A program made the position numbers and the translations under genes. A stretch of DNA of 64,000 nucleotides from a virus, in the IMG/VR virus record IMGVR_UViG_3300034152_000814, positions 1 through 64,000 of that record; one strand, 5' to 3'. The first letter of the stretch is position 1, and every line of letters begins with the position of its first letter. Of the stretch, positions 3,345 to 57,265 are shown one piece after another. Under the pieces are notes generated by a model. The model did no database searches and was not told the origin of the DNA. It worked only from the letters and a program-made list of their open reading frames with translations.

Positions 3345-3381
3345 TGCCTAAGTACCAATACGTCGGCACCGACGAGGGACG

Positions 3382-4635
3382 GTGGAAATGAAGCGTCCGA
3401 AGGTCATAAGCCTTTTTACGGGCGCCGGGGGCTTGGATCTCGGCCTTGAAGCTGCCGGATTTGAGTTGGCTGTCGGGGTAGAATTTGACCCCGAAGCAGT
3501 CGCTACCCTCCGCGCAAATCGGAACTGGCCGATTATTGACCGCGACATACACGAGGTTCCGACCAAGGAGCTGCTCGAGGTCGCGGGGCTTCGCGAGGGC
3601 GAAGCCGATCTCCTCGCTGGTGGGCCGCCCTGTCAGCCCTTCAGTAAATCGGGCTATTGGGCCAGTGGCGACGCCGGCAGACTCGAGGACCCGAGAGCGA
3701 CAACTCTTGAGGCGTTCCTTCGAGTGCTGAGGGACACCAAGCCGAAGGTCTTCTTACTTGAGAATGTCTCTGGGCTTGCATACCGAAACAAGAATGAAGG
3801 CCTGGAGCTTCTCCGAACTACGATTGACGAAATCAACGAGGCCGCCGGCACCGCATACTCGTTCCAATCTTCGGTAATCAACACCGTAGAGTATGGTGTA
3901 CCGCAGGAGAGGGAGCGGTTCTTGGTAATAGGCCACAGAGACGGCGCCTGTTTTGAGTTTCCTAAACCAACTCACACGAAGCCCAAGAAGCAGCGAGGAA
4001 CTCGCCGGAGTTCCTCGGAAGACAAAGATCTCGAGCCGTTTCACACGGCTTGGGACGCGATTGGCGACCTTCAGGAGGACGGCAGCGCCGAGTTGAGAAT
4101 GACTGGCAAGTGGGCAGACCTTTTGCCCTCAATTCCCGAGGGCGAGAACTATCTCTACCACACTGACCGGGGCGCAGGCCTTCCGCTTTTTGGTTGGCGG
4201 AGAAGATATTGGAGTTTTCTTCTCAAGCTATCCAAGCGTCTCCCGTCTTGGACCATAACTGCTCAGCCAGGCTCAGCCATAGGGCCCTTTCATTGGAAGA
4301 ACCGACGTATCTCCATGAAGGAGCTATGCAGGCTTCAGACGTTCCCCGACGACTACGAGATCCTTGGTGGCCGCACCTCCTATCAAAAGCAACTTGGCAA
4401 CGCTGTCCCGGCTGCTTTAGCAGAGAAGCTTGGGCTGGAGATTCGTAAAATGCTTGGTCACGACGTGCGCCGCAGAAAGCTCAAGCTCCTGCCGGCTCGT
4501 CGAACGCCTGTGCCTCCGGCAGAACGCTCTCGAAAGGTTCCACAGAAGTACATGGAGCTTGTCGGCGAACACGAGGCACACCCAGGAACAGGTAAAGGAT
4601 ATGGGGCATTAGCCAGAACTCAAAACCAAAGCTGA
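3382..4635 (+). CDS. dcm: DNA cytosine-5 methyltransferase
   Basis: C5-MTase motifs I FTGAGGLDLG, IV PPCQPFS, ENV, QLGNAVP; lower GC than neighbouring genes. Confidence 0.9.
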   Translation: MEMKRPKVISLFTGAGGLDLGLEAAGFELAVGVEFDPEAVATLRANRNWPIIDRDIHEVPTKELLEVAGLREGEADLLAGGPPCQPFSKSGYWASGDAGRLEDPRATTLEAFLRVLRDTKPKVFLLENVSGLAYRNKNEGLELLRTTIDEINEAAGTAYSFQSSVINTVEYGVPQERERFLVIGHRDGACFEFPKPTHTKPKKQRGTRRSSSEDKDLEPFHTAWDAIGDLQEDGSAELRMTGKWADLLPSIPEGENYLYHTDRGAGLPLFGWRRRYWSFLLKLSKRLPSWTITAQPGSAIGPFHWKNRRISMKELCRLQTFPDDYEILGGRTSYQKQLGNAVPAALAEKLGLEIRKMLGHDVRRRKLKLLPARRTPVPPAERSRKVPQKYMELVGEHEAHPGTGKGYGALARTQNQS

Positions 4636-4834: not shown

Positions 4835-5398
4835 ATGGAAGTTGAAACTTTCGAGATCGAGGAGGCCGTCGGCGAGGCGCTCGGGACCACGCCGGAGATC
4901 GAGGCCGAGGCCCTGGAGCTCATCGAATCGCTGGGACTCGAGGGGCAGAGCAAGCTCGTCGTCAGGAACGAGGAGACCGGCGACGACGAAAGGATCCCCT
5001 ACCCCGAGATGACGAAGGCCGAGGTCGAGACATACCAGGCCCGCTTCCCGGTCTCGGATAAGGTGGAGAACTACTCGATGGGGATCATCCCCGTCCGCGT
5101 CCTCCAGGTCGTCGGGCACGCGCGCGGGATCTTCGAGGAGGTCTACGTCTGGCACGACCGGGTGCGCGACCCCGACCCGATCCTCGTCGGGAAGTCCGAC
5201 AAGGTGTACTACCTCCTCGCGAGGTGGGGCGACGCGCTCAAGAGCTTCGCGGAGGTCAAGGTGGAGGCCGCGACGAAGTTGCGGGAGGACTGGGAGCGGA
5301 AACTGAAGGCGAAGATCGGGGAGTGCCAGTCCTTCCTCGCCTCGCTGGACGCGAAGGTCGAGGAGAAACTGGCCGGCGAGTGGGTGTTCCTGCCATGA
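4835..5398 (+). CDS. hypothetical protein (187 aa)
   Basis: RBS gaagggagaccgag; acidic N-terminus. Confidence 0.55.
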   Translation: MEVETFEIEEAVGEALGTTPEIEAEALELIESLGLEGQSKLVVRNEETGDDERIPYPEMTKAEVETYQARFPVSDKVENYSMGIIPVRVLQVVGHARGIFEEVYVWHDRVRDPDPILVGKSDKVYYLLARWGDALKSFAEVKVEAATKLREDWERKLKAKIGECQSFLASLDAKVEEKLAGEWVFLP

Positions 5399-7386: not shown

Positions 7387-7566
7387 ATGATCTGGATAGC
7401 CCTCGTACTCGCGGCGATCGCCGTTTGGGTCGCGCTGCGGGGCCTCCGGCACGAGGTCCGGTGCCACGACCGAATCCTCTCGGGCAGGGTGCGCCGGCTG
7501 GAGCGGGCGCTCCGGCTGCACGCCGAGGGGCGACCGCTGCTCGCGGAGGAAGAATGCGACGACTGA
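7387..7566 (+). CDS. small membrane protein
   Basis: TM helix IWIALVLAAIAVWVAL. Confidence 0.35.
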   Translation: MIWIALVLAAIAVWVALRGLRHEVRCHDRILSGRVRRLERALRLHAEGRPLLAEEECDD

Positions 7567-7811
7567 ACGCCACGCAACTACGGGAGATGCGGGAAACCCA
7601 CGAGTTCCTCTGGATCAGCGAGCTCGCCGAGATGCTCGAAGCCTCCCCGCACGTGGTCCGGCGGCTCGCCCACGCCGGCAGGCTGCCCGCGGTGAAGCTG
7701 CCGAACGGCACGATCCGGATCCACTACCGACGGGGGGAGGACCCGAGGGGGTTCGGCGCGGACGTCGAGCTGTGGAGCCGTCCGAAGAAAAGAGTTGACA
7801 AGGGCGACTGA
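7554..7811 (+). CDS. excisionase/MerR-like HTH DNA-binding protein
   Basis: ISELAEMLEASPHVVRRLAHAGRLPAVKLPNGTIRI helix-turn-helix. Confidence 0.6.
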   Translation: MRRLNATQLREMRETHEFLWISELAEMLEASPHVVRRLAHAGRLPAVKLPNGTIRIHYRRGEDPRGFGADVELWSRPKKRVDKGD

Positions 7812-7869
7812 GAACGGTACCGTGGAATCGACATGATAACCCGAGCTCATAGAACGTCGATGCAGGGAG

Positions 7870-7901
7870 CCCGAGGGGGCGCACAACCCTCGGGCGTTTT
7901 C
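7870..7901 (+). terminator. rho-independent terminator
   Basis: CCCGAGGG-9nt-CCCTCGGG followed by CGTTTTC. Confidence 0.6.
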
Positions 7902-7993
7902 ATGTCGCAAGCTCAATTCCCAATTGAGCTTACTTCGTCACTGGGCGTTTTCATGTCGCAAGCTCAATTCCCAATTGAGCTTACTTCGTCACT
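7892..7993. repeat. two tandem 51-bp direct repeats, each with palindrome GCTCAATTcccAATTGAGC
   Basis: exact repeat read directly from the sequence; period 51. Confidence 0.9.
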
Positions 7994-8335
7994 TTACGCT
8001 TCGTAAAAGCGAAGAGCGGGATAGCCCCTTATCCCGCAAGGGTTTACTTCACTCACTTCACACACTTTACCGTTTCAAATCGCCAGGAAGTACGTGACGA
8101 TATGCTCACGCACTTCCTGGTAACTTTTTTATATAAAGTGTGTGAAGTGTGTGAAGTAAGTATATACAGTAGTTATAGTTATCTCTCTCTTTACTATAAA
8201 GTAAAGTAAAGTAACGAAGTAAATATAAGGGGTGTATGTAGTTAGCGCCCACTTCTATTTTAGCAGGAAGTTAGGTCTCTTACCGTCGGAAGCTCGAACT
8301 CGCACTTCCGGGCTCCGGTGCGGTAGAATCGAGGC

Positions 8336-8530
8336 ATGGCGCGGATATGGTCGGCTCACCGCTGCGACCGCTGCGGGCTGACGGGCCTGGCGGTCGGCGA
8401 CGCGGCGCTGCCCCCGGGCTGGGAGGCGGCTGCCGTGGGCGACGCGCGCCGCGACCTCTGCGCGAACTGCGCGGCGAAGGTCTCGCGGGCGTTGACCGAT
8501 CCGCCAAGTACTGGTACAATAACCATCTAA
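8336..8530 (+). CDS. small Cys-containing protein
   Basis: CDRCG ... CANC pairs. Confidence 0.4.
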   Translation: MARIWSAHRCDRCGLTGLAVGDAALPPGWEAAAVGDARRDLCANCAAKVSRALTDPPSTGTITI

Positions 8531-8558: not shown

Positions 8559-9017
8559 ATGGCGGCTCGTAGCATACTGGCCAAGAAGAAGTTAGAGACC
8601 TTCCTGAAGTCCCTGGCATTCACCGGGGAGAAGATCAACTCGGCCGACGCGGCGGGGATCCCTTGGAGCACGCTGGAGAAGCGGATCGCGCGCGACCCGG
8701 GTCTGAGGGGCCGAGTCGACGAGGCGATGTCCCGCTTCCACGAGAGGATCGAGAGCACGGTGCGCGGCCGGGGGATCGAGGGTTGGGAGGAGCCGGTCTT
8801 CTGGCAGGGCGAGGTCGTGGGGCACGTTCGGAAGTACTCGGACCGGTGCCTCGAGATGCTGGCGAAGCGCCACATCGCGGAGTACCGGGACAAGATGCGG
8901 ATCGACGCCTCCGTCCAGGGGGGCGTCCTCGTCGTTGGTGGAATGATGGACGAGGACGAGTGGGTCGAGACGTACGGTGGTAAGCAAGCTGACGAAGACG
9001 AAGGGAGTCAGGAATGA
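8559..9017 (+). CDS. putative terminase small subunit / HTH protein
   Basis: 152 aa with acidic C-terminus; position upstream of terL. Confidence 0.45.
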   Translation: MAARSILAKKKLETFLKSLAFTGEKINSADAAGIPWSTLEKRIARDPGLRGRVDEAMSRFHERIESTVRGRGIEGWEEPVFWQGEVVGHVRKYSDRCLEMLAKRHIAEYRDKMRIDASVQGGVLVVGGMMDEDEWVETYGGKQADEDEGSQE

Positions 9018-9394
9018 ACGAGTTCACGCTGGATCCGAAGGAGGTAACGGGGCGCGCGCTTGACGGGCTCCAGGAGCGCGTCGAGGTCGAGCTCCGCGAA
9101 GAGCCGGAAGCCCTGGCGCCTGCCCGGGGGATGGTCGCGATCTGCTCACGGGACATTCCGGGGATCATCACGTCGGACGAGCCGCGGAAGGTGACGTACC
9201 CGGACGGGAACGAGGGCGTCGCCTACGTCGGTGTCAGGCTGACGGACGGTGGGCCCTGGAGCTCCAGGACGCCGCGCGTGCTGGGACGGGCGCTGGACCT
9301 GCTGCGCGCGCCGCTGACGTTCGCGCAGTGGGCCCGCGGCGCGCGGTTCCGGCACCTCGTCGTGCGGCCCGACGGCACCCTCGAGACCTCCTGA
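9014..9394 (+). CDS. hypothetical protein
   Basis: ATGA overlap coupling. Confidence 0.5.
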   Translation: MNEFTLDPKEVTGRALDGLQERVEVELREEPEALAPARGMVAICSRDIPGIITSDEPRKVTYPDGNEGVAYVGVRLTDGGPWSSRTPRVLGRALDLLRAPLTFAQWARGARFRHLVVRPDGTLETS

Positions 9395-9558
9395 TGCCGC
9401 CGGTATGGCACGTCGCCCGCGCGCGCTGCGTGATCTTGTGGGTGGCTGTCTTCCCGGAGGGGGCCCCGGTCGACGAGCCGGAGGACCTGAAGGAGTACGA
9501 GGAGCTCGACAGCGCTTTCTACTACCCGGAGGACGCGGATGACGATGGCTGTGGCTGA
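9394..9558 (+). CDS. small acidic protein
   Basis: TGATG overlap coupling. Confidence 0.35.
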   Translation: MPPVWHVARARCVILWVAVFPEGAPVDEPEDLKEYEELDSAFYYPEDADDDGCG

Positions 9559-10042
9559 GAGGCTGCACGTCCCGATCTGGAACGGGAGGTTCGTAGCTGA
9601 CGGGCGCGCGGCGTGGGCGGAGGACCCGCTCCGCGCCATGCTGTCGTGGCCGGCGCTGCCTCCGGGGCCCACGAGGACGCGGCTCGAGACCCTCATGTAT
9701 TGCCGTCCGGATCGCGCCGTGAACCTGCTCCCACCGGACGTCCGGATCGGGACGTGGGAACCGACGACGGCGCGCGCGAACGCTTTCCGACTGGCGAGGT
9801 GGGCCGCGAGCGAGTCGGACATGAATTTCTTCCTCCTCGGTAGGCGCGTGGCTACGGCGTTCGGGGTCGGTGACGCCCCGGTAGGCGCCGAATTCCGCGC
9901 GTGGGGTGTCCCGTGCCTCTTCCTGCCCCACCCCAGCGGCCGGAGCAGGTACCTCAACTCGATCGATAAACGCAGAGAAATACGTCGACGGGTACGTGAC
10001 TTCGCAGAAAGGAGAACGCTATGCGGGGCTGCTCTGGATTGA
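9539..10042 (+). CDS. hypothetical protein, possibly UDG-superfamily-like
   Basis: LFLPHPSGRSRYLN resembles UDG/MUG motif B; weak. Confidence 0.45.
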   Translation: MTMAVAERLHVPIWNGRFVADGRAAWAEDPLRAMLSWPALPPGPTRTRLETLMYCRPDRAVNLLPPDVRIGTWEPTTARANAFRLARWAASESDMNFFLLGRRVATAFGVGDAPVGAEFRAWGVPCLFLPHPSGRSRYLNSIDKRREIRRRVRDFAERRTLCGAALD

Positions 10043-10752
10043 CGTTGGTGCTGATCGCGATACTGGGGGTGCTGATCGCGGCGGCGGTAGTCTTCGCCGA
10101 CGAGGACCTGGGGACGGACGTGAACGAGCTGATGAAGCCGGTGGTGCGCGTGGAGAGGGGACCGTCGAGGTCAACGGGCATGATCATCCACCCCAACGCG
10201 AAGGGGAAGGCGTACGTACTGACCGTGAATCATGGGATCGACGACAGCTTGGATGAACCTGTAGTGGTGGTGTTCTTCGAGTACGAGGATGGTGGGCGGG
10301 AAGTAATTGCGAGGCGTTACGAAGCGGAGGTGGTGGCGACGGAAGCCGAGCTGGATCTCGCGCTGCTCCGGATCGACGTCGGGGACGAGAAGCTCCCGGC
10401 GGTGCGCCTGGCGTCGCCGGGACGGAAGTTGCGGCTGCTCGAGAAGGTGCGCGTAGTCGGTTGCCCCCTCGGGAAGGATCCCGTGGTGAGCGACGGTGAG
10501 GTGACGGACCTCGAGCATGAATTAGATGGGCAGAAGTTCGTCATGACGAGCGCGGGGTACTACCTCGGCAACTCCGGGGGGCCCGTCTTCGTGAAGGACG
10601 ACGGGAAGTGGTACGTCGTCGGGATGATGGCGCGCTCGGAGGGCTTCCGTTGTCAATTGATTACGTACATGGGCTACGCGATTCCGGTCTCGCGGATTCA
10701 CACGTGGCTCCTCGAGCTGACCAGGAAGATGGAAGAGAGTATCGATGGTTAA
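10021..10752 (+). CDS. secreted or membrane trypsin-like (S1/DegP-type) serine protease
   Basis: N-terminal TM/signal; TVNHGID (His), DLALLRID (Asp), GNSGGPVF (Ser). Confidence 0.75.
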   Translation: MRGCSGLTLVLIAILGVLIAAAVVFADEDLGTDVNELMKPVVRVERGPSRSTGMIIHPNAKGKAYVLTVNHGIDDSLDEPVVVVFFEYEDGGREVIARRYEAEVVATEAELDLALLRIDVGDEKLPAVRLASPGRKLRLLEKVRVVGCPLGKDPVVSDGEVTDLEHELDGQKFVMTSAGYYLGNSGGPVFVKDDGKWYVVGMMARSEGFRCQLITYMGYAIPVSRIHTWLLELTRKMEESIDG

Positions 10753-11053
10753 GTGGCTCCTCCTCGTTGTTTTGCTGTTCCTCTGCGGCTGCGTACGCTT
10801 CGCGCGGATCGATTGCTCGCGGTACTACGGGATCGCGACGACGGACGCGCGATCCGGCGTCCGCGCCGACCTCGGGCGGGGCTTCGGGACGGAGTGGTCA
10901 ACGGGGTACCGCATGGAGGTAGGTGAGGAGCCTGGATGGTTGGTTACGGGCGGCGTGACCTGGGGGTGGAAACCCTTCTCCCTGTGGCTCGGCGGCGAGG
11001 TCGTGGAGCCGGACGAGTTCAACTGGCACTTGGGGACGGAGATGGAATTCTGA
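10745..11053 (+). CDS. lipoprotein
   Basis: signal peptide plus lipobox LFLCGC; Trp/Gly-rich. Confidence 0.5.
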   Translation: MVKWLLLVVLLFLCGCVRFARIDCSRYYGIATTDARSGVRADLGRGFGTEWSTGYRMEVGEEPGWLVTGGVTWGWKPFSLWLGGEVVEPDEFNWHLGTEMEF

Positions 11054-11144
11054 TGGGATTGACGTTCCTGCACGAGGCGACGGACGACGCCCGCGGCGCG
11101 GCGCTGATCAAGCTGAGTGATCTGGACGAGGACGAGAGGGTGGA

Positions 11145-11456
11145 ATGAGTGGATCCCGAGCGAAGTGGCTCCGGAGCAAGCTGCGCCGGTTGGAGTTCAA
11201 CCTGACGCTGCGCGGTTGGCGGAAGCTGAAGCGGCGGTGGCGGGACACGCCGCGCCCGGAGCGCGAGTTCTTCGTCGTCTCCCGGGAGGCGACGTTCCTG
11301 CGCAACGAGGACGCGCAGAGGTTGGTAGGCAAGATGTCACCGAAGCAGCGGGACCAGCTCGAGGAGCTCGTGGTCGAGCAGCGCGCTACGGGCATGGATT
11401 CCCGCGGTTTCTGGAAGCGATTGATGGGCATCATCCGGGGGAGGCGGCGTGGCTGA
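11145..11456 (+). CDS. hypothetical basic protein
   Basis: Arg/Lys-rich. Confidence 0.45.
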   Translation: MSGSRAKWLRSKLRRLEFNLTLRGWRKLKRRWRDTPRPEREFFVVSREATFLRNEDAQRLVGKMSPKQRDQLEELVVEQRATGMDSRGFWKRLMGIIRGRRRG

Positions 11457-11601
11457 TTTCGCGAAATGCGGGGGGAAGGGCTGCGCCGTCAAGCGACGGT
11501 GCGCCCGCTACGTGGCACCCCCGGGGATGTGGCAGGGGTGGTTCGAGCCGGAGAGCCCGGGCCCGAATTGCCGGTATTTAATGCCGACGCGGGAGAGGTG
11601 A
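11449..11601 (+). CDS. Cys-rich mini-protein (50 aa)
   Basis: VADFAKCGGKGCAVKRRCARY...NCRY; GTG start; TGATG coupling. Confidence 0.35.
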   Translation: MADFAKCGGKGCAVKRRCARYVAPPGMWQGWFEPESPGPNCRYLMPTRER

Positions 11602-11834
11602 TGAAGGCGGTGCTCGTATTCGACCAGGAGGATCCGGACGACCGCGCGGAGCTCCGGAGGGCGGTGGCGGCGCCCCGGATGCTCTCGGCTCTGTGGGAAT
11701 TCAACGAACTTTTCCGGAAGATCCGGAAGTACGAGGACCACGGCCCGTGCGCCCAAGAGATGGTGGATCGGCTGGAGAGTGCTTTCCACGAACTCCTGGA
11801 CGGGTACGGCGTGAGGCTCGAGGACGAGTACTGA
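11601..11834 (+). CDS. hypothetical protein
   Basis: MKAVLVFDQEDPDD... Confidence 0.5.
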   Translation: MKAVLVFDQEDPDDRAELRRAVAAPRMLSALWEFNELFRKIRKYEDHGPCAQEMVDRLESAFHELLDGYGVRLEDEY

Positions 11835-11844
11835 AGGAGGCGGC

Positions 11845-13341
11845 GTGCGGCAGTTGGTGGAGTGGCGCAAGGTGGAGGGCGCCCTCAAGCCCTTCATGAA
11901 CGGCTACGAGGTGGCGTGGGCCCCCCAGCCCGGCTCCCAGGAGGCGTGGCTGGATTGCGGGATCTACGAGGGGCTCTACGAGGGGACCCGCGGGCCCGGG
12001 AAGACCGATTGCCTCCTCATGGATTTCGCGCAGCACGTCGGGAAATCAGTATGTCCGGGCGACCACAAGGGATACGGCGCCGAATGGCGCGGGATCCTCT
12101 TCCGGCAGACCTACCCCCAGCTCGCCGACCTCGTGGCGAAGACGAAGAAGTGGTTCCCGCGGGTCTTCCCCGCGGCGACGTTCAACGAATCGAAGATGAC
12201 GTGGGCCTGGCCGACGGGCGAGACGCTCAGGCTCTCCTACATGGCCCGGGAGGAGGATTACTGGAACTACCACGGGCACTCCTACCCCTGGATCGGGTGG
12301 GAGGAGCTCACGACCTGGCCGAGCGATCATTGCTACAAGATCATGATGTCGTGCTCCAGGTCGACGCAGCCCGGGATGCCCCGCAAGTACCGTGCCACGT
12401 CGAACCCCTACGGGCCGGGGCACAACTGGGTGAAGGCCCGGTGGCGCCTGCCGCTCGCCCCGGGACGGATCATCGGACCGGTGATCCGGGAGGGTGATCT
12501 GCCCCCGAGGGTAGCGATTCGGGGCCGTCTGACGGAGAATAGAATTCTGTTGGAAGCAGATCCGGAGTACATCGACCGGATCCGCGCCGCGGCGAGGAAT
12601 CCCTCGGAGCTGAAGGCGTGGCTGTACGGCTCCTGGGACATCGTGGCCGGCGGGATGTTCGACGACATCTGGCAACCGAGGTACCACGTCGTCGAGAACA
12701 TTCCCCTCGACGCGATACCCTCAACGTGGCGTTTGAACAGGAGTTACGACCACGGCCAATCGAAACCTTTCTCGGTTGGCTGGTGGGCGCAGTCGAACGG
12801 CGAGCCGATCGAGGTGAACGGCGCCGTCTTCGGGCATGTCCCGGGGGACCTGTTCCGGCTCACCGAGTGGTACGGCTGGAACGGCTCCCCGAATGAAGGT
12901 TTGCGCATGCTGTCGACCGAGATAGCCGACGAGATCCGGGAGCGGGAGAACCGGTGGGGACTCAACGGTCACGTCAAACCAGGTCCCGCGGACTCCTCGA
13001 TCTTCGACGACTTCGAGCCCGGTAAGAGCGTGGCGGGCGACATGGCGAGGCGGGGCGTACGGTGGCAGGCGGCGGACAAGCGGGCCGGGTCCCGCAAGCA
13101 GGGGTGGGAGCAGATCCGGAAGTACCTGAAGGGAGCGGTCCCAGGCGAGGAAGGCGTGCGAGAGTCGCCGGGCCTCTTCATCTGCCGGAACTGCGAGCAA
13201 TTCATCCGGACGTTCCCGGTTCTACCACGCGACGGGAAGGATCCCGACGACGTGGACACGGACGCGGAGGATCACATCGCGGACGAGGTGAGGTACCGGG
13301 TGCGCGAGAAGGTACGGACGGCGAGGAGCTACGATGCCTAA
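11845..13341 (+). CDS. terL: terminase large subunit
   Basis: Walker A GTRGPGKT; RATSNPYGPGHNW terminase signature; RBS gaaggagg. Confidence 0.9.
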   Translation: MRQLVEWRKVEGALKPFMNGYEVAWAPQPGSQEAWLDCGIYEGLYEGTRGPGKTDCLLMDFAQHVGKSVCPGDHKGYGAEWRGILFRQTYPQLADLVAKTKKWFPRVFPAATFNESKMTWAWPTGETLRLSYMAREEDYWNYHGHSYPWIGWEELTTWPSDHCYKIMMSCSRSTQPGMPRKYRATSNPYGPGHNWVKARWRLPLAPGRIIGPVIREGDLPPRVAIRGRLTENRILLEADPEYIDRIRAAARNPSELKAWLYGSWDIVAGGMFDDIWQPRYHVVENIPLDAIPSTWRLNRSYDHGQSKPFSVGWWAQSNGEPIEVNGAVFGHVPGDLFRLTEWYGWNGSPNEGLRMLSTEIADEIRERENRWGLNGHVKPGPADSSIFDDFEPGKSVAGDMARRGVRWQAADKRAGSRKQGWEQIRKYLKGAVPGEEGVRESPGLFICRNCEQFIRTFPVLPRDGKDPDDVDTDAEDHIADEVRYRVREKVRTARSYDA

Positions 13342-32348: not shown

Positions 32349-33883
32349 TGGCTTACCAAACAGGAACCGTAACGGACTACGTCGACCTCCTGAACGAGCT
32401 GGTCGATTTCCTCACGTCGCAGGGCGTCGCCACCGTCGCGGTCAACGCCGGCGGGGGCAGCTACGTCGTAGGGGACGTCCTGACGGCGTCGGGTGGGACG
32501 TCGACGCACGCCGCGACGTTCGAGGTGACGAGCGTCGGTGGTGGGGGCGACGTGACCGGGATCATCGTCCTGGAGCACGGGGCGTACACGTCGACGCCCG
32601 GGAACCCGGTCTCGACGACCGGTGGAACCGGCACGGGCTGCACGCTCGACCTCACCTGGCAGGACACGGGCTGGTCGATCCTGCGCGAGACGCAGGAGGC
32701 CGTCTCCGCCACGCCGGCGGCCGGCGGGACCGGCTACCAGGTCGGGGACCAGCTCTCGCTCGTGGGTGGCGTGGAGGTCGCCGAGACGGCCGTCTTCAAC
32801 GTGGACTCCGTGGGTGGCGGCGGGGACGTGACCGGCGTGAGCCTCGTCACGGACGGGTCGTACGGCGAAACGCCGGCGAACGCCGTCTCGACGACGGGCG
32901 GCAACGGCTCCAACTGCACGCTGAACGTCACCTGGCAGGACCTCGACGACGAGGACAAGCAGGTCATCCTCGAGGGTGAGGGGTCCGGCGCCGACCAGAT
33001 CTTCGTCGGGATCAGGTCCTTCAGCTCCGCCCCCATCTACAACTGGGAGCTCGCCGGCATGACCGGATTCGATTCCGGTCTGATCTTCGGCAACCAGCCC
33101 GGGATCTCACCTGGACGGTGGGACGCTGGACCGGTCGCGGACCAGTGCGGCGCCTACGTACCATTGAACAACTCGACGATGACGTACTGGTTCTTCGCGG
33201 ACGGTCGTCGGTTCATCGTGATCGCGAAGATCGGCGCGGTCTACGCGAACCTTCACGTTGGTTTCATCGACCCGTTCTCGATCTCCGCGGACTACCCGTA
33301 CCCGCTGCTGATCCTGGGCTGCTCCAGCGATCCCATGAAACCGTACAACGACACGAGCATCGGGTACTCCGGCATGACGGAACCGATCAGCGCTGACGGT
33401 TACGAGGTCGGGGGGCCCGGTTGGCTCCGGGAGCCCGGTGGTACGTGGACCATGGTGCGGTGCAGCAAGCAGACCACCCCGACTGGACGGCTGGATCCCG
33501 ATCCGGAGGACGTCGTGATTTACCCCACGGGGCAGATAGATCGCGCGAACCTCGACGAGGAGGACCTGTTCTACTACACGGAATGGACGCCGGACGATCT
33601 GGTGCCGTACGCGGGCATTCCAGGATCGCCGGACGTGGAGTACTGGCAAACTCCGGAGACGCCCGATTTCATCACGCCGATATATCCCGCCACGCTCTAC
33701 AAGAGCGGGACGCAGATGCAGGTCTTCGGCGAGATGGCTGACGTGTTCTGGATGAGCACGTTCACGGAGACGACGAACATCGTCACCGAGGATACGGTCA
33801 CGATAAACGGCGACGTTTACCTCGTCTTCCAGAACTGCAACCGCAACGACGCGTGGGCGCACTTCTGCATCAAGAGGAGCTAA
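32348..33883 (+). CDS. distal tail protein with two internal ~85-aa repeats
   Basis: repeats GGTGYQVGD...NVTWQD; N-terminus and C-terminal half paralogous to gene 33885. Confidence 0.6.
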   Translation: MAYQTGTVTDYVDLLNELVDFLTSQGVATVAVNAGGGSYVVGDVLTASGGTSTHAATFEVTSVGGGGDVTGIIVLEHGAYTSTPGNPVSTTGGTGTGCTLDLTWQDTGWSILRETQEAVSATPAAGGTGYQVGDQLSLVGGVEVAETAVFNVDSVGGGGDVTGVSLVTDGSYGETPANAVSTTGGNGSNCTLNVTWQDLDDEDKQVILEGEGSGADQIFVGIRSFSSAPIYNWELAGMTGFDSGLIFGNQPGISPGRWDAGPVADQCGAYVPLNNSTMTYWFFADGRRFIVIAKIGAVYANLHVGFIDPFSISADYPYPLLILGCSSDPMKPYNDTSIGYSGMTEPISADGYEVGGPGWLREPGGTWTMVRCSKQTTPTGRLDPDPEDVVIYPTGQIDRANLDEEDLFYYTEWTPDDLVPYAGIPGSPDVEYWQTPETPDFITPIYPATLYKSGTQMQVFGEMADVFWMSTFTETTNIVTEDTVTINGDVYLVFQNCNRNDAWAHFCIKRS

Positions 33884-54889: not shown

Positions 54890-57265
54890 ATGAGGCCCAA
54901 CTACCAGGCGGCGATCGAATTCCTCCGCCTCTGGGCGCCGGACGGTCCGTGGATCCTGACGGCGATCCAGGTGGACAGGAAGGGGATCGAGACCAAGACG
55001 TTCAAGCCGGGCGACGAAGCGGAGCTTCTCGCTTGGCTCGAGGATCAAGGCGCGACGCGGAACCTCTACTTCCACGTCAACCCCGCGACGCGCGACCTGA
55101 CGAAGAAGGCCGAGCGAACCGACGTCAAGGCGCTCGCCTGGCTGCACGTAGACATCGACCCACGGGCGGGGGAGGACCTCGCGGAGGAGCAAGCTCGCGC
55201 GCTCGAGACGTTGCGGCGGCGACTCCCTCCCGACGTCCCCCCGCCCACGGTCATCGTATTCAGCGGTGGCGGCTACCAGGGCTTCTGGAAGCTGCGCGAG
55301 CCCGTCCCCATCGACGGGGACCTCGAGAAGGCCGAGGACGCCGCCCGCTACAACCTCCAGCTCGAGCTGCTATTCGGTGCCGACGAGTGCCACAACGTCG
55401 ACCGGATCATGCGCCTCCCGGGCACCCTGAACCGCCCGAACAAGCGCAAGCGCGACAAGGGCCAGAGGATCGCCCTCGCGGAGGTCGTCGAGTTCGAACC
55501 GGAGCGGGTCTACGACGTCGGACAATTCGTCAAGGCCCTGAAGGTCCAGGAGCCCGACGAGGGCTTCGCCGCGGACCGACTCCAGGCGCCGGGCAACGTC
55601 GCGCGCCTCGACAGCGTCGAGGACCTGCCCGAGAACGTCCCGGACTGGTGCCGGGTCCTGATCGTGCAGGGGCACGACCCCGAGGACCCGGAGAAGTGGG
55701 GCGGCGACCGCTCCCGGGCGCTCTTCGCGGTCGTCTGCGAGCTCGACCGCTGCGGCGTGCCGGCGGACGTGATCTACAGCGTGATCACCGACCCCGGCTT
55801 CCTGATCTCGGAGAGCGTCCTCGACAAGGGGACGCAGGTCGAGCGGTACGCCCTGCGACAGATCGAGCGGGCCCGGGAGGAGAACGTCAACCCGACGCTC
55901 CGGATTCTCAACGAGCGCCACGCCGTCATCGCGAACTGGGGTGGCGACTGCTGCGTGATCGAGGAGCAGCACGACCCCGTGATGAAGCGGTCCCGCCTGA
56001 CGTCGCAATCGTTCGCGAATTTCAAGAAGCGGTACGACAACCAGCGAGTCCAGGTCGGCGTCGACGCGAACGACAACCCGCGCACCGCGCCCATGGGGTC
56101 GTGGTGGCTCAGCCAGGGGATGCGCCGGCAGTACGACACCGTCGTTTTCGCGCCCGGTCGGGACGTGGAAGGATCGTACAACCTCTGGCGCGGCTTCGCG
56201 TACGACGCCAGGCCGGGCGACTGCTCGCTCTTCCTCGCGCACGTCCGGAACGTCGTCTGCGGCGGGAACGAGGACCACTACCGCTACCTGATGCGGTACC
56301 TCGCCCGCGCCGTCCAGTGCCCGGGCGAGCCGGGCTACGCCTCGATCGTCCTCCGGGGGAAGGAGGGCGTCGGGAAGGGCTTCTTCGTGACGCGCTTCGG
56401 GCGGCTCTTCGGGCGGCACTTCGTCCAGGTGACGAGCGCGAAGCACCTCGTCGGGAACTTCAACTTCCACCTCTGGGACTGCGTCGTCCTCTTCGCGGAC
56501 GAGGCTTTCCGGGCGCGCGACAAGCAGGCCGAGGCGATCCTGAAGACGATCGTCACGGAGGAGACGCTCCAGATCGAGAAGAAGGGCAAGGACACGATCA
56601 CCGCGCCGAACTTCCTCCACGTCTTCATGGCGTCGAACGAGGAGTGGGTGATCCCAGCCGGCTACGACGACCGGCGCTTCTTCGTGCTGGACGTCTCCGA
56701 CGCGCACCAGAAAGATTACAATTACTTCGGCGCGATCGACGCGCAGCTCGAGGACGGCGGCTACGCGGCGCTCCTCCACCACCTCCTGACGTACGACGTC
56801 GGGGAATTCAACGTGCGCGACATCCCGGAGACCGAAGCCCTGAAGACGCAGAAGGAGCTATCCTTGGGGAGCGCCGAGGACTGGTGGATGTCGAAGCTCC
56901 TCGACGGTCGCCTGGACGATTCCCACGAGGAATGGGGACCGCGGATCCTGCGTGAGAACCTCCTCTATGATTTCACGCAGCATGTCGCGAAGTTCGGGGG
57001 ACGCGGGAAGACGAGCGAAATCTCCATCCGTCGTTTCCTCTCGCGAGTCATGCCTGGTCACTACCCGAGACGCAAGCAGGGATCGCAGCCCGCCTACGTG
57101 AAGCAGCTCGACGGGTCCGAGAAGACCGCCACGCGGCCGTATTACTACTACGTTCCTCCCCTCCAGGCGTGCCGCGACTACTGGGACGAGCACTTCGGCG
57201 GTCCGTACGACTGGCCGGAGGTCGAGGTGGTCGACGACGTGGAGCCCGGCGAGGACGCCTTCTGA
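54890..57265 (+). CDS. bifunctional primase-polymerase (prim-pol) / P4-D5-like helicase
   Basis: WLHVDIDP and VIVFSGGGYQGFW prim-pol motifs; Walker A GKEGVGKG; RRFFVLDVSDAH P4-primase C-terminal signature. Confidence 0.85.
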   Translation: MRPNYQAAIEFLRLWAPDGPWILTAIQVDRKGIETKTFKPGDEAELLAWLEDQGATRNLYFHVNPATRDLTKKAERTDVKALAWLHVDIDPRAGEDLAEEQARALETLRRRLPPDVPPPTVIVFSGGGYQGFWKLREPVPIDGDLEKAEDAARYNLQLELLFGADECHNVDRIMRLPGTLNRPNKRKRDKGQRIALAEVVEFEPERVYDVGQFVKALKVQEPDEGFAADRLQAPGNVARLDSVEDLPENVPDWCRVLIVQGHDPEDPEKWGGDRSRALFAVVCELDRCGVPADVIYSVITDPGFLISESVLDKGTQVERYALRQIERAREENVNPTLRILNERHAVIANWGGDCCVIEEQHDPVMKRSRLTSQSFANFKKRYDNQRVQVGVDANDNPRTAPMGSWWLSQGMRRQYDTVVFAPGRDVEGSYNLWRGFAYDARPGDCSLFLAHVRNVVCGGNEDHYRYLMRYLARAVQCPGEPGYASIVLRGKEGVGKGFFVTRFGRLFGRHFVQVTSAKHLVGNFNFHLWDCVVLFADEAFRARDKQAEAILKTIVTEETLQIEKKGKDTITAPNFLHVFMASNEEWVIPAGYDDRRFFVLDVSDAHQKDYNYFGAIDAQLEDGGYAALLHHLLTYDVGEFNVRDIPETEALKTQKELSLGSAEDWWMSKLLDGRLDDSHEEWGPRILRENLLYDFTQHVAKFGGRGKTSEISIRRFLSRVMPGHYPRRKQGSQPAYVKQLDGSEKTATRPYYYYVPPLQACRDYWDEHFGGPYDWPEVEVVDDVEPGEDAF

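Follow-up and report, generated by a model that had tools for sequence, protein, structure and literature searches.

A repeat-rich region at the early/late boundary

The DNA analysed here is a 64,000-nt stretch of a virus (the window; positions 1 to 64,000 of IMG/VR virus record IMGVR_UViG_3300034152_000814), and the element under study is its ORF-free region 7812-8335, located between the stop codon of a helix-turn-helix (HTH) gene of the HTH_17 type and the ATG (8336) of a zinc-ribbon open reading frame (ORF), upstream of the gene for the small terminase subunit (TerS). All convincing genes of the window lie on the + strand and the early/late boundary of the genome coincides with the region. 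An earlier note on this DNA had described an AT-rich non-coding region of about 520 bp as the sole large non-coding stretch. Its coordinates were correct: the region measures 524 bp, and no other part of the window that is free of + strand ORFs of 60 codons or more is as long, the runners-up being 326 and 174 bp. Its GC content is 0.36-0.53 when measured over 200 bp and falls to 0.31 over 100 bp, against about 0.65 for the window. The remaining low-GC patches were rejected as further non-coding regions since they encode methyltransferases (44-586 and 3382-4635) and other ORFs. The earlier note had also placed the region between an Xis-like gene and the terminase genes. The Xis-like neighbour was found as the final gene of the early block, but the zinc-ribbon ORF intervenes before TerS, which begins 224 bp after the end of the region, and the large subunit TerL lies well downstream.

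The core of the region consists of two arrays of 9-bp iterons in mirror image, separated by a spacer of 62 bp (8073-8134; Table 1). The spacer carries a central hairpin holding one GGAAGT/ACTTCC pair in opposite polarity, a candidate cleavage or bending centre. Both arrays are enclosed in a large imperfect palindrome whose outer arms (43 nt) are 74% complementary and whose inner inverted repeat (26 nt) is 96% complementary. Folded as single-stranded DNA, the stretch 7975-8228 reached -60.7 kcal/mol (z=-12.5); the predicted RNA fold had z=-9.8. The ACTTC/GAAGT motif occurs 12 times in the region, for 1.07 +/- 1.02 expected (2000 shuffles, maximum 6), and the iteron cluster at 7900-8300 is the only one in the 64-kb window. 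A lag-9 scan of the 64 kb returned 6 arrays, 2 of them within the region. Given the motif excess, the lack of a second cluster and the fold z-score of -12.5, the anatomy of the region is real and not a product of chance.

The repeats that the earlier note had listed are all present, including an imperfect 12-bp inverted repeat: the two 51-bp tandem repeats are exact (7892-7942 and 7943-7993), each with its palindrome of 10-bp arms, the further hairpins correspond to GC hairpins 7869-7895 and 8016-8037 and to hairpin 8083-8120, two copies of AAGTGTGTG stand at 8136-8153, and the AGTAAA tract appears as AAAGT x3 / AGTAAA at 8198-8212. We found no match to GATC or to the integration host factor (IHF) consensus (WATCAANNNNTTR) in 7812-8335, the IHF result being of limited weight, and no DnaA box (TTATCCACA, up to 1 mismatch) in the region. 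Rfam (gathering and E-value thresholds) and tRNA scans gave no gathering-level match in the window; within the region, Rfam returned only sub-threshold matches to plant-miRNA hairpins, at chance level, and to enterovirus families.

Table 1. Features of the region and its surroundings in the window
Feature	Position	Strand	Basis or remark
HTH_17 / MerR-like (Xis-like) protein, 85 amino acids (aa), final early-block gene	7554-7811	+	Pfam HTH_17 E=2.8e-7, phrog_66
Promoter-like element: TTGACA (7795-7800), 17-nt spacer, TACCGT (7818-7823)	7795-7831	+	sequence reading; putative promoter
Border repeat copy 1, CGGTACCGTGGAATCGA	7815-7831	+	direct repeat
Terminator-like hairpin GCCCGAGGG-(9 nt)-CCCTCGGGC, then T-run GTTTTCAT	7869-7903	+	inverted repeat; kept in centroid fold
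Exact 51-bp tandem duplication, 2 copies	7892-7993	+	Tandem Repeats Finder (TRF) score 204
Palindrome AAGCTCAATT-ccc-AATTGAGCTT, 10-bp arms, one per 51-bp copy	7909-7931, 7960-7982		inverted-repeat search
Iteron TTACTTCGTCACT, one per 51-bp copy	7930-7942, 7981-7993	+	
Large imperfect palindrome, dyad centre ~8102, outer arms 7981-8023 and 8180-8222	7981-8222		inverted-repeat search and folding
GC hairpin GCGGGATA-(6 nt)-TATCCCGC, within left outer arm	8016-8037		terminator-like when read on the - strand
Left inner iteron array ACTTCACTC ACTTCACAC ACTTTACCG, three 9-bp units	8046-8072	+	TRF period 9
Central hairpin/palindrome CCAGGAAGTACGTGA-(8 nt)-TCACGCACTTCCTGG in spacer	8083-8120		15-nt arms, 93% complementary; in minimum free energy and centroid folds
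Right inner iteron array AAAGTGTGT GAAGTGTGT GAAGTAAGT, exact mirror image of left	8135-8161	-	TRF period 9 at 100%
CT tract CTCTCTCTTT, then AAAGT x3 and AACGAAGTAA: right outer iterons	8183-8222	-	pairs with 7981-8023; AT-richest part of the region
Distal iteron-like motifs CACTTCTA...GGAAGTTA	8249-8273		motif positions
Distal iteron-like motif GCACTTCC	8302-8309		-35 region, ~15-22 bp upstream of -10-like TAGAAT
Border repeat copy 2, CGGTGCGGTAGAATCGA, with -10-like TAGAAT (8324-8329)	8316-8335	+	direct repeat; putative start element
Zinc-ribbon ORF (CxxC...CxxC), 64 aa, between region and TerS	8336-8530	+	GC at third codon positions 0.83; weak DZR_2 match
Sigma-70-type promoter TTGACC-17-TACAAT (with TG), directly before TerS	8492-8520	+	10/12 match
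TerS (small terminase subunit)	8559-9017	+	phrog_4044 E=1.9e-31
TerL	11845-13341	+	3.5 kb downstream of region, beyond 2.8-kb insert

The same design precedes terS in related phages

Close TerS relatives were not found in IMG/VR or in JGI metagenome contigs, and comparison loci were taken through TerS homologues of 36-48% identity. More than 20 other phage loci with the same TerS family have a gap of this type, with related iterons, directly before terS. The gaps measure 0.3-1.5 kb, are lower in GC and rich in repeats. They were found in loci L081-L084, L092 and L093, in phages YuA and Epa5, in Achromobacter phage JWX (of a different genus, Steinhofvirus), in Pseudomonas phages PaMx11, Ab18, Ab20, ZC01, PAKlein3, Lucjan and RaNi, and in the IMG/VR loci L002/3, L005/70, L024, L030, L039, L046 and L075, whose TerS matched the profile with E=1e-14 to 1e-42. 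Locus L081 is syntenic with the window over the HTH_17 gene, AT-rich gap, zinc-ribbon ORF and TerS, with a trypsin-like protease among the downstream genes; its gap is a 420-nt imperfect palindrome (z=-15.5). That palindrome also includes two inverted copies of CTATCCACA (9420-9432 and 9518-9530) that match the DnaA-box consensus at 8/9 positions; the window has none.

Many of these loci again have mirror arrays of 9-bp period on either side of a spacer, which measured 53-113 bp. The left array of L084 reads ACTTTACCT ACTCTACCT ACTCTACCT (spacer about 70 bp), L082 has an array of ACCTACTCG units (about 75 bp), L070 has TTACTTACC x3 (113 bp) and L075 units of TTACTTACC type (53 bp). Epa5 and PaMx11 carry GACTCTAGA TACTTGAGT ... 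/ AAAGTAGAGTAACTAGAGTC with a spacer of about 90-110 bp, the PaMx11 value of ~110 bp being judged by eye. In YuA, the homologous element directly upstream of terS (NC_010116, gp49-gp50 intergenic, 32840-33498) has arrays TACTTAGG TTACTTGGG TTTCTTACC / ...AAGGTAAGTAAGTTAAGTAAG round an 85-bp spacer (about 33,076-33,161), followed by a pyrimidine-rich microsatellite. The lag-9 scan detected gap arrays in 4/9 related loci scanned, in addition to the window. An array far longer than that of the window was seen in L093, where 26.8 tandem 9-bp units (5147-5387; consensus TCGCTTCCC, with CGCTTCACT variants) precede TerS and share the core CTTCAC with the left array of the window; the L093 array is overlain by a basic minus-strand ORF that looks spurious. 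Across loci the cores ACTTCAC, ACTTTACC, ACTCTACC, ACTCGACC, ACTCTAG, ACTTACC and ACTTAGG form one family, ACTYNAS.

The block '(CT)n - AAAG - iterons' of 8183-8222 was also present in PaMx11, Epa5, L082 and L084, PaMx11 (an Abidjanvirus) and Epa5 having in common the form '(CT)n-AAAG-AGTAGAGTAACTAGAGTC'. Among 7 Abidjanviruses the iteron block showed a conservation of 0.91-0.94, comparable to that of the flanking genes and among the best-kept non-coding blocks, and the adjoining microsatellite was hypervariable. Beyond the iteron core, YuA, PaMx11, Ab18 and Epa5 could not be aligned with the window, which differs from them by its extra zinc-ribbon ORF and its 51-bp duplication. Hypervariable microsatellites in the homologous regions comprise (CAGCAC)x10 in PaMx11 (L085 190-250), none in Ab18, and (TCTA)n in YuA (L182 7190-7212) and L070 (7087-7110). 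Two independent Logan contigs of one TerS relative start 270 bp (L094) and 43 bp (L095) upstream of TerS; these starts fit assembly breaks in the repeat/palindrome region or, possibly, real ends.

The region is linked to TerS and to no other gene

Only three window proteins had homologues in the flanks of related loci: TerS (12/12), TerL and portal. TerS was the sole constant neighbour of this type of region. The upstream neighbours belonged to no common family, a homologue of the HTH_17 protein being found there in L081 only; the HTH_17 protein was accordingly rejected as a general iteron binder, the remaining loci having unrelated genes at that place. In L082 neither TerL (Terminase_6C) nor the portal (Mu-type) is homologous to that of the window, but the TerS family and the iteron region are both kept. 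As the region follows TerS despite changed upstream genes and, in L082, a changed TerL, the element belongs to TerS, and neither to the HTH_17 gene nor to the replication module, which occupies 47-60 kb of the window (SF1 helicase, PolA and RepB-primase/DUF5906, 54890-57265).

A candidate site for initiation of packaging

By its design, the region is a conserved candidate site for protein docking at the level of DNA. Our preferred reading, to which we give a probability of about 0.4, is that it would act as an assembly site linked to TerS, at which headful packaging initiates (pac) and which overlaps the promoters of the late operon. As for a pac, the site lies in cis next to the small-terminase gene and its iteron cluster has no second copy in the 64 kb; the exclusive linkage to TerS fits this reading, as does a resemblance to the pac sites of SPP1 and P1. 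Transcription of the early block would end at hairpin 7869-7903. A DNA-binding phage protein, most likely a TerS oligomer using its N-terminal HTH, would load cooperatively on both arrays and bend or wrap the AT-rich DNA, and the complex would thereby designate where on the concatemer TerL makes the first cut of a headful series, inside the spacer or close to it. It may also modulate transcription of the zinc-ribbon/TerS/late operon, given that promoter elements coincide with the arrays or lie beside them; in YuA the homologous left array overlaps an annotated active promoter. In a more explicit form of this scheme, which we regard as improbable in its full detail, the 9-bp tracks would be a docking lattice for the TerS ring with one iteron per HTH subunit, specificity would arise by avidity, the mirror arrays would position two rings or a single wrapped ring at the first cut, and the late promoter would be auto-regulated.

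Phages of the Ab18 group, with the same TerS family, gave a circular assembly and no abnormal read peaks (PMC4482731), and Yuaviruses are reported to be circularly permuted (PMC11946847, PMC13560652). The reported permutation of these relatives fits headful packaging and is silent on the start site. A cos site is unlikely here, because relatives with the same TerS family are reported as permuted without defined ends and because the region is internal, 7.8 kb from the start of the window. The source contig (64,545 bp) is the window plus 545 bp; if it is linear and complete, the region is thus not at a contig end. Of the functions that the earlier note had proposed, cos is now disfavoured and a replication origin weakened, while pac and an operator array both remain live. 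Its suggestion that the physical genome start lies here would be right at most in a weak sense, as the place of the first headful cut. Two further clues to termini were set aside. Contigs of IMG/VR relatives end 3.4-4.4 kb before TerL, which does not match the region, and the family is permuted. The '77-bp terminal repeat' of RcSimone-Hastad was not used, as it is probably a k-mer overlap left by the assembler.

Several observations weigh against a packaging role. A frequently used pac might have left a signal in the reads of the Ab18 group, and AT-richness, iterons and dyad symmetry are equally typical of origins and operator arrays. Comparison of the TerS recognition helix with the iteron core revealed no simple co-variation: the HTH of L093 is 21% identical to that of the window despite the common CTTCAC core, and PaMx11 and Epa5 have common iterons with different recognition helices. 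In Rhodobacter phages, which are more distant TerS relatives, no gap adjoins TerS. When 66 distant, prophage-like TerS loci of bacterial genomes were crudely scanned, no upstream repeat enrichment was found, an uninformative outcome given that its ORF-start rule overshoots and spurious GC-rich ORFs hide gaps, as happened at first with the YuA-type gap of L007/L013/L018.

Alternative explanations

The region could instead serve pure transcriptional control, its iterons being operators for an early/late regulator other than TerS, for example through looping between the mirror arrays, with no role in packaging. Its position at the early/late boundary with all genes on one strand would suit this, as would the upstream terminator-like hairpin, the three promoter-like elements and the placing of GCACTTCC in the -35 region of the TAGAAT element. 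P2 Cox, 186 Apl and the omega repressor also bind in this way, on contiguous iterons of short period. The YuA left array falls on the -35/-10 of an annotated promoter-trap fragment of 1000 Miller units that points at terS, and a sigma-70-like YuA promoter mapped by ONT (Oxford Nanopore Technologies)-cappable-seq is consistent with that assay (PMC10914365). However, no regulator gene is conserved beside the region, HTH_17 being confined to the window and L081; TerS has its own sigma-70-like promoter (8492-8520) downstream of the arrays; and the region persists with TerS when all else changes (L082, JWX). We hold control of transcription as the sole function to be rather unlikely. It is also compatible with the packaging reading and not exclusive of it, as TerS loading at a pac could regulate its own operon. 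A replication origin, which appears more doubtful still, would have the iterons bind an initiator such as the RepB-primase/DUF5906 primase-helicase encoded by the window, with AT-rich DNA at 8120-8135 and 8160-8235 unwinding and nearby promoters activating. As in origins, iterons adjoin a potential AT-rich unwinding element; they occur in both orientations, next to the AT-richest DNA of the window (GC 0.31 over 100 bp), in a single copy in the genome and with strong cruciform potential, and the alpha primase-helicase of phage P4 uses 8-bp iterons in both orientations. On the other hand, the region is ~15 kb from the replication genes and is never beside them in the relatives examined, where it follows TerS, including in JWX and L082; no DnaA box was detected with up to 1 mismatch. 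Cumulative GC skew showed no global inflection at the region, but strand skew is uninformative here because the genome is transcribed in one direction.

The very stable fold (RNA z=-9.8) and the promoter-like element 7795-7831 upstream of it would be expected of a structured non-coding RNA, a hairpin of ~240 nt transcribed from that element. This seems very improbable: a terminator-like hairpin stands between promoter and palindrome, the arms are tandem 9-bp iterons, a signature of protein sites, and relatives keep the array design with sequences that cannot be aligned. In L093, one direct array of ~27 units has no mirror partner reported, so that hairpin formation would be impossible there; Rfam added no family match. 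Least credible to us is that the 17-bp direct repeat (7815-7831 / 8316-8332) encloses a miniature inverted-repeat mobile element or some other AT-rich insertion of foreign origin, although low GC in a high-GC genome, the overall inverted repeat and the imperfect direct repeats at the borders would agree with it. The same position holds an analogous, sequence-divergent element in more than 20 phages, the window has no other copy and the palindrome is absent from IMG/VR; conserved position and single copy thus make a mobile element unlikely. The border repeats, besides, resemble duplicated -10/start elements, of which L081 has its own version.

Comparison with known packaging, origin and operator sites

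The pac of P1 (162 bp) has 4+3 hexamers TGATCA/G flanking a cleavage zone of ~90 bp with an IHF site. It resembles the region in that clusters of short repeats flank a central zone of 60-110 bp in a headful phage, but it lies inside pacA and is under the control of Dam methylation, whereas the window region has neither GATC nor IHF consensus; the repeat units also differ, those of the window being oriented as mirror images. SPP1 is likewise a headful packager with its recognition region at or upstream of terS, and the DNA of its pac is bent and rich in AT. Homology between SPP1 and the window was detected neither in sequence nor in TerS, and the SPP1 boxes are not tandem 9-bp iterons in mirror arrays. 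In the SPP1 pac (pacL-pacC-pacR), TerS has multiple contacts on either side of the TerL cut site (PMC9611059). Lambda cosB (R3-I1-R2-R1, bound by the gpNu1 HTH) offers repeated sites for a small-terminase HTH just upstream of its gene, but lambda has fixed cohesive ends, whereas relatives of the window are permuted and the region has no IHF site. Iteron origins (lambda ori, P4 ori/crr) and operator arrays (P2 Cox boxes, omega-repressor heptads) combine short direct or inverted iterons, adjoining AT-rich DNA and filament-like cooperative binding; the region differs from both in its linkage to TerS and not to an initiator or regulator gene.

Packaging or control sites beside terS are a known kind of element; the explicit mirror lattice of 9-bp iterons, conserved across many phages, is new in its form. 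In the available records and literature, the YuA region is annotated as a promoter fragment only, with no pac, ori or iteron function, and we likewise found no description of such sites for phages of the same TerS family. The recognition of viral DNA by small terminases is still considered 'unclear and controversial' (PMC9611059), and the region matters for this reason and because several culturable phages carry the element: it offers an explicit candidate TerS target in the Pseudomonas and Achromobacter phages YuA, Ab18, PaMx11 and JWX. If the packaging reading is true, it would provide a pac site, hence a prediction of transduction, for Mesyanzhinovviridae-like phages of therapy cocktails; if the lattice form is true as well, a natural pac whose periodicity exposes the long-disputed mode of TerS-DNA recognition. 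If the region is only a promoter/operator or an origin, it would be an ordinary but well-conserved control region.

Borders and left part of the region

The promoter-like element 7795-7831 overlaps the end of the HTH gene and the first border repeat, with the next ATG at 7833; its L081 counterpart is TTGACA-N18-TAGACT. The 17-bp border element CGGTNCNGTNGAATCGA has exactly 2 copies in the 64 kb, in direct orientation at the two borders (7815-7831 and 8316-8332), each with a -10-like hexamer followed by an ATG a few bases on. An equivalent arrangement with its own sequence was found in L081. The pair could be either a duplicated leaderless start or an insertion footprint. As TAGAAT (8324-8329) stands only 6 nt before the ATG at 8336, the zinc-ribbon mRNA may be leaderless; at the same border L081 has TATACT-CCGGGC-ATG. 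YuA and L070 carry GCTATACTCGC ~90 bp before terS.

The terminator-like hairpin 7869-7903 probably ends the early operon; L081, L084 and the Abidjanviruses have counterparts with a T-run behind the upstream gene. The 51-bp copies are 100% identical, which suggests a recent duplication. In L082 the counterpart of this left part consists of 27-bp x3 and 38-bp x3 direct repeats. An exact scan of IMG/VR for the 23-nt palindrome gave 0 matches.

The YuA promoters described as 'sigma70 promoters requiring a phage-encoded cofactor' read GGGGCTTTACTTCTTCGG...CCACTATACTTTCTTCAC (L182 3059-3086 and 5099-5126; YuA 29058 and 31098). Their -35 part TTTACTTC resembles the window iteron TTTACTTCAC; the likeness may be coincidental or may point to a transcription cofactor as the protein that binds the iterons. 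Elsewhere in the window, no YuA-type phage-specific promoter architecture was found.

Neighbouring genes

Gene 8559-9017 encodes the small terminase, as assigned from its profile match, a predicted TerS-like fold and its place upstream of TerL and portal. The AlphaFold model (predicted local distance difference test score 82) has an HTH at 25-45, a long helix at 47-74 and a beta-hairpin at 76-92. Small terminases (2ao9, Sf6 gp1 and NV1) ranked top in Foldseek with the model, though not significantly (E>0.5), and PDB sequence searches with TerS and TerL gave no match. Across related loci the HTH of TerS is variable (16-35% identity) in comparison with the core (41-60%). Directly before TerS, L081 has TTGACG-17-TAAGAT at the place of the sigma-70-type promoter.

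The zinc-ribbon protein could be an accessory DNA-binding or packaging protein. Its homologue at the equivalent place in L081 (9792-9959) is 55% identical; L083 has two Cys-rich ORFs there (3356-3700), and the Pseudomonas phages have no zinc-ribbon ORF. Small genes fill the ~2.8 kb between TerS and TerL (9014-11845); one of them (10021-10752; Trypsin_2 E=1e-21) encodes a trypsin-like serine protease. L081 has the same inserted block with the protease, and L083, L092 and L093 have several kb of small genes at this place; in many relatives TerS abuts TerL or is near it.

Two methyltransferase genes lie in low-GC patches of the early region. Over its first ~637 bases the window has a GC content of 0.36-0.48 and encodes an MT-A70 adenine methyltransferase (44-586; Pfam E=1e-29). 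An HTH_17-like ORF (583-735) has its first ~18 codons in this block, followed by an abrupt switch to a GC of about 0.65. The block could be a foreign cassette, joined recently by recombination inside the HTH gene, or else a chimeric assembly close to the end of the contig. A C5 cytosine DNA methyltransferase of 417 aa (3382-4635; Pfam DNA_methylase E=3e-57), in a patch of GC 0.51-0.60, is apparently a second early-region methylase of foreign composition.

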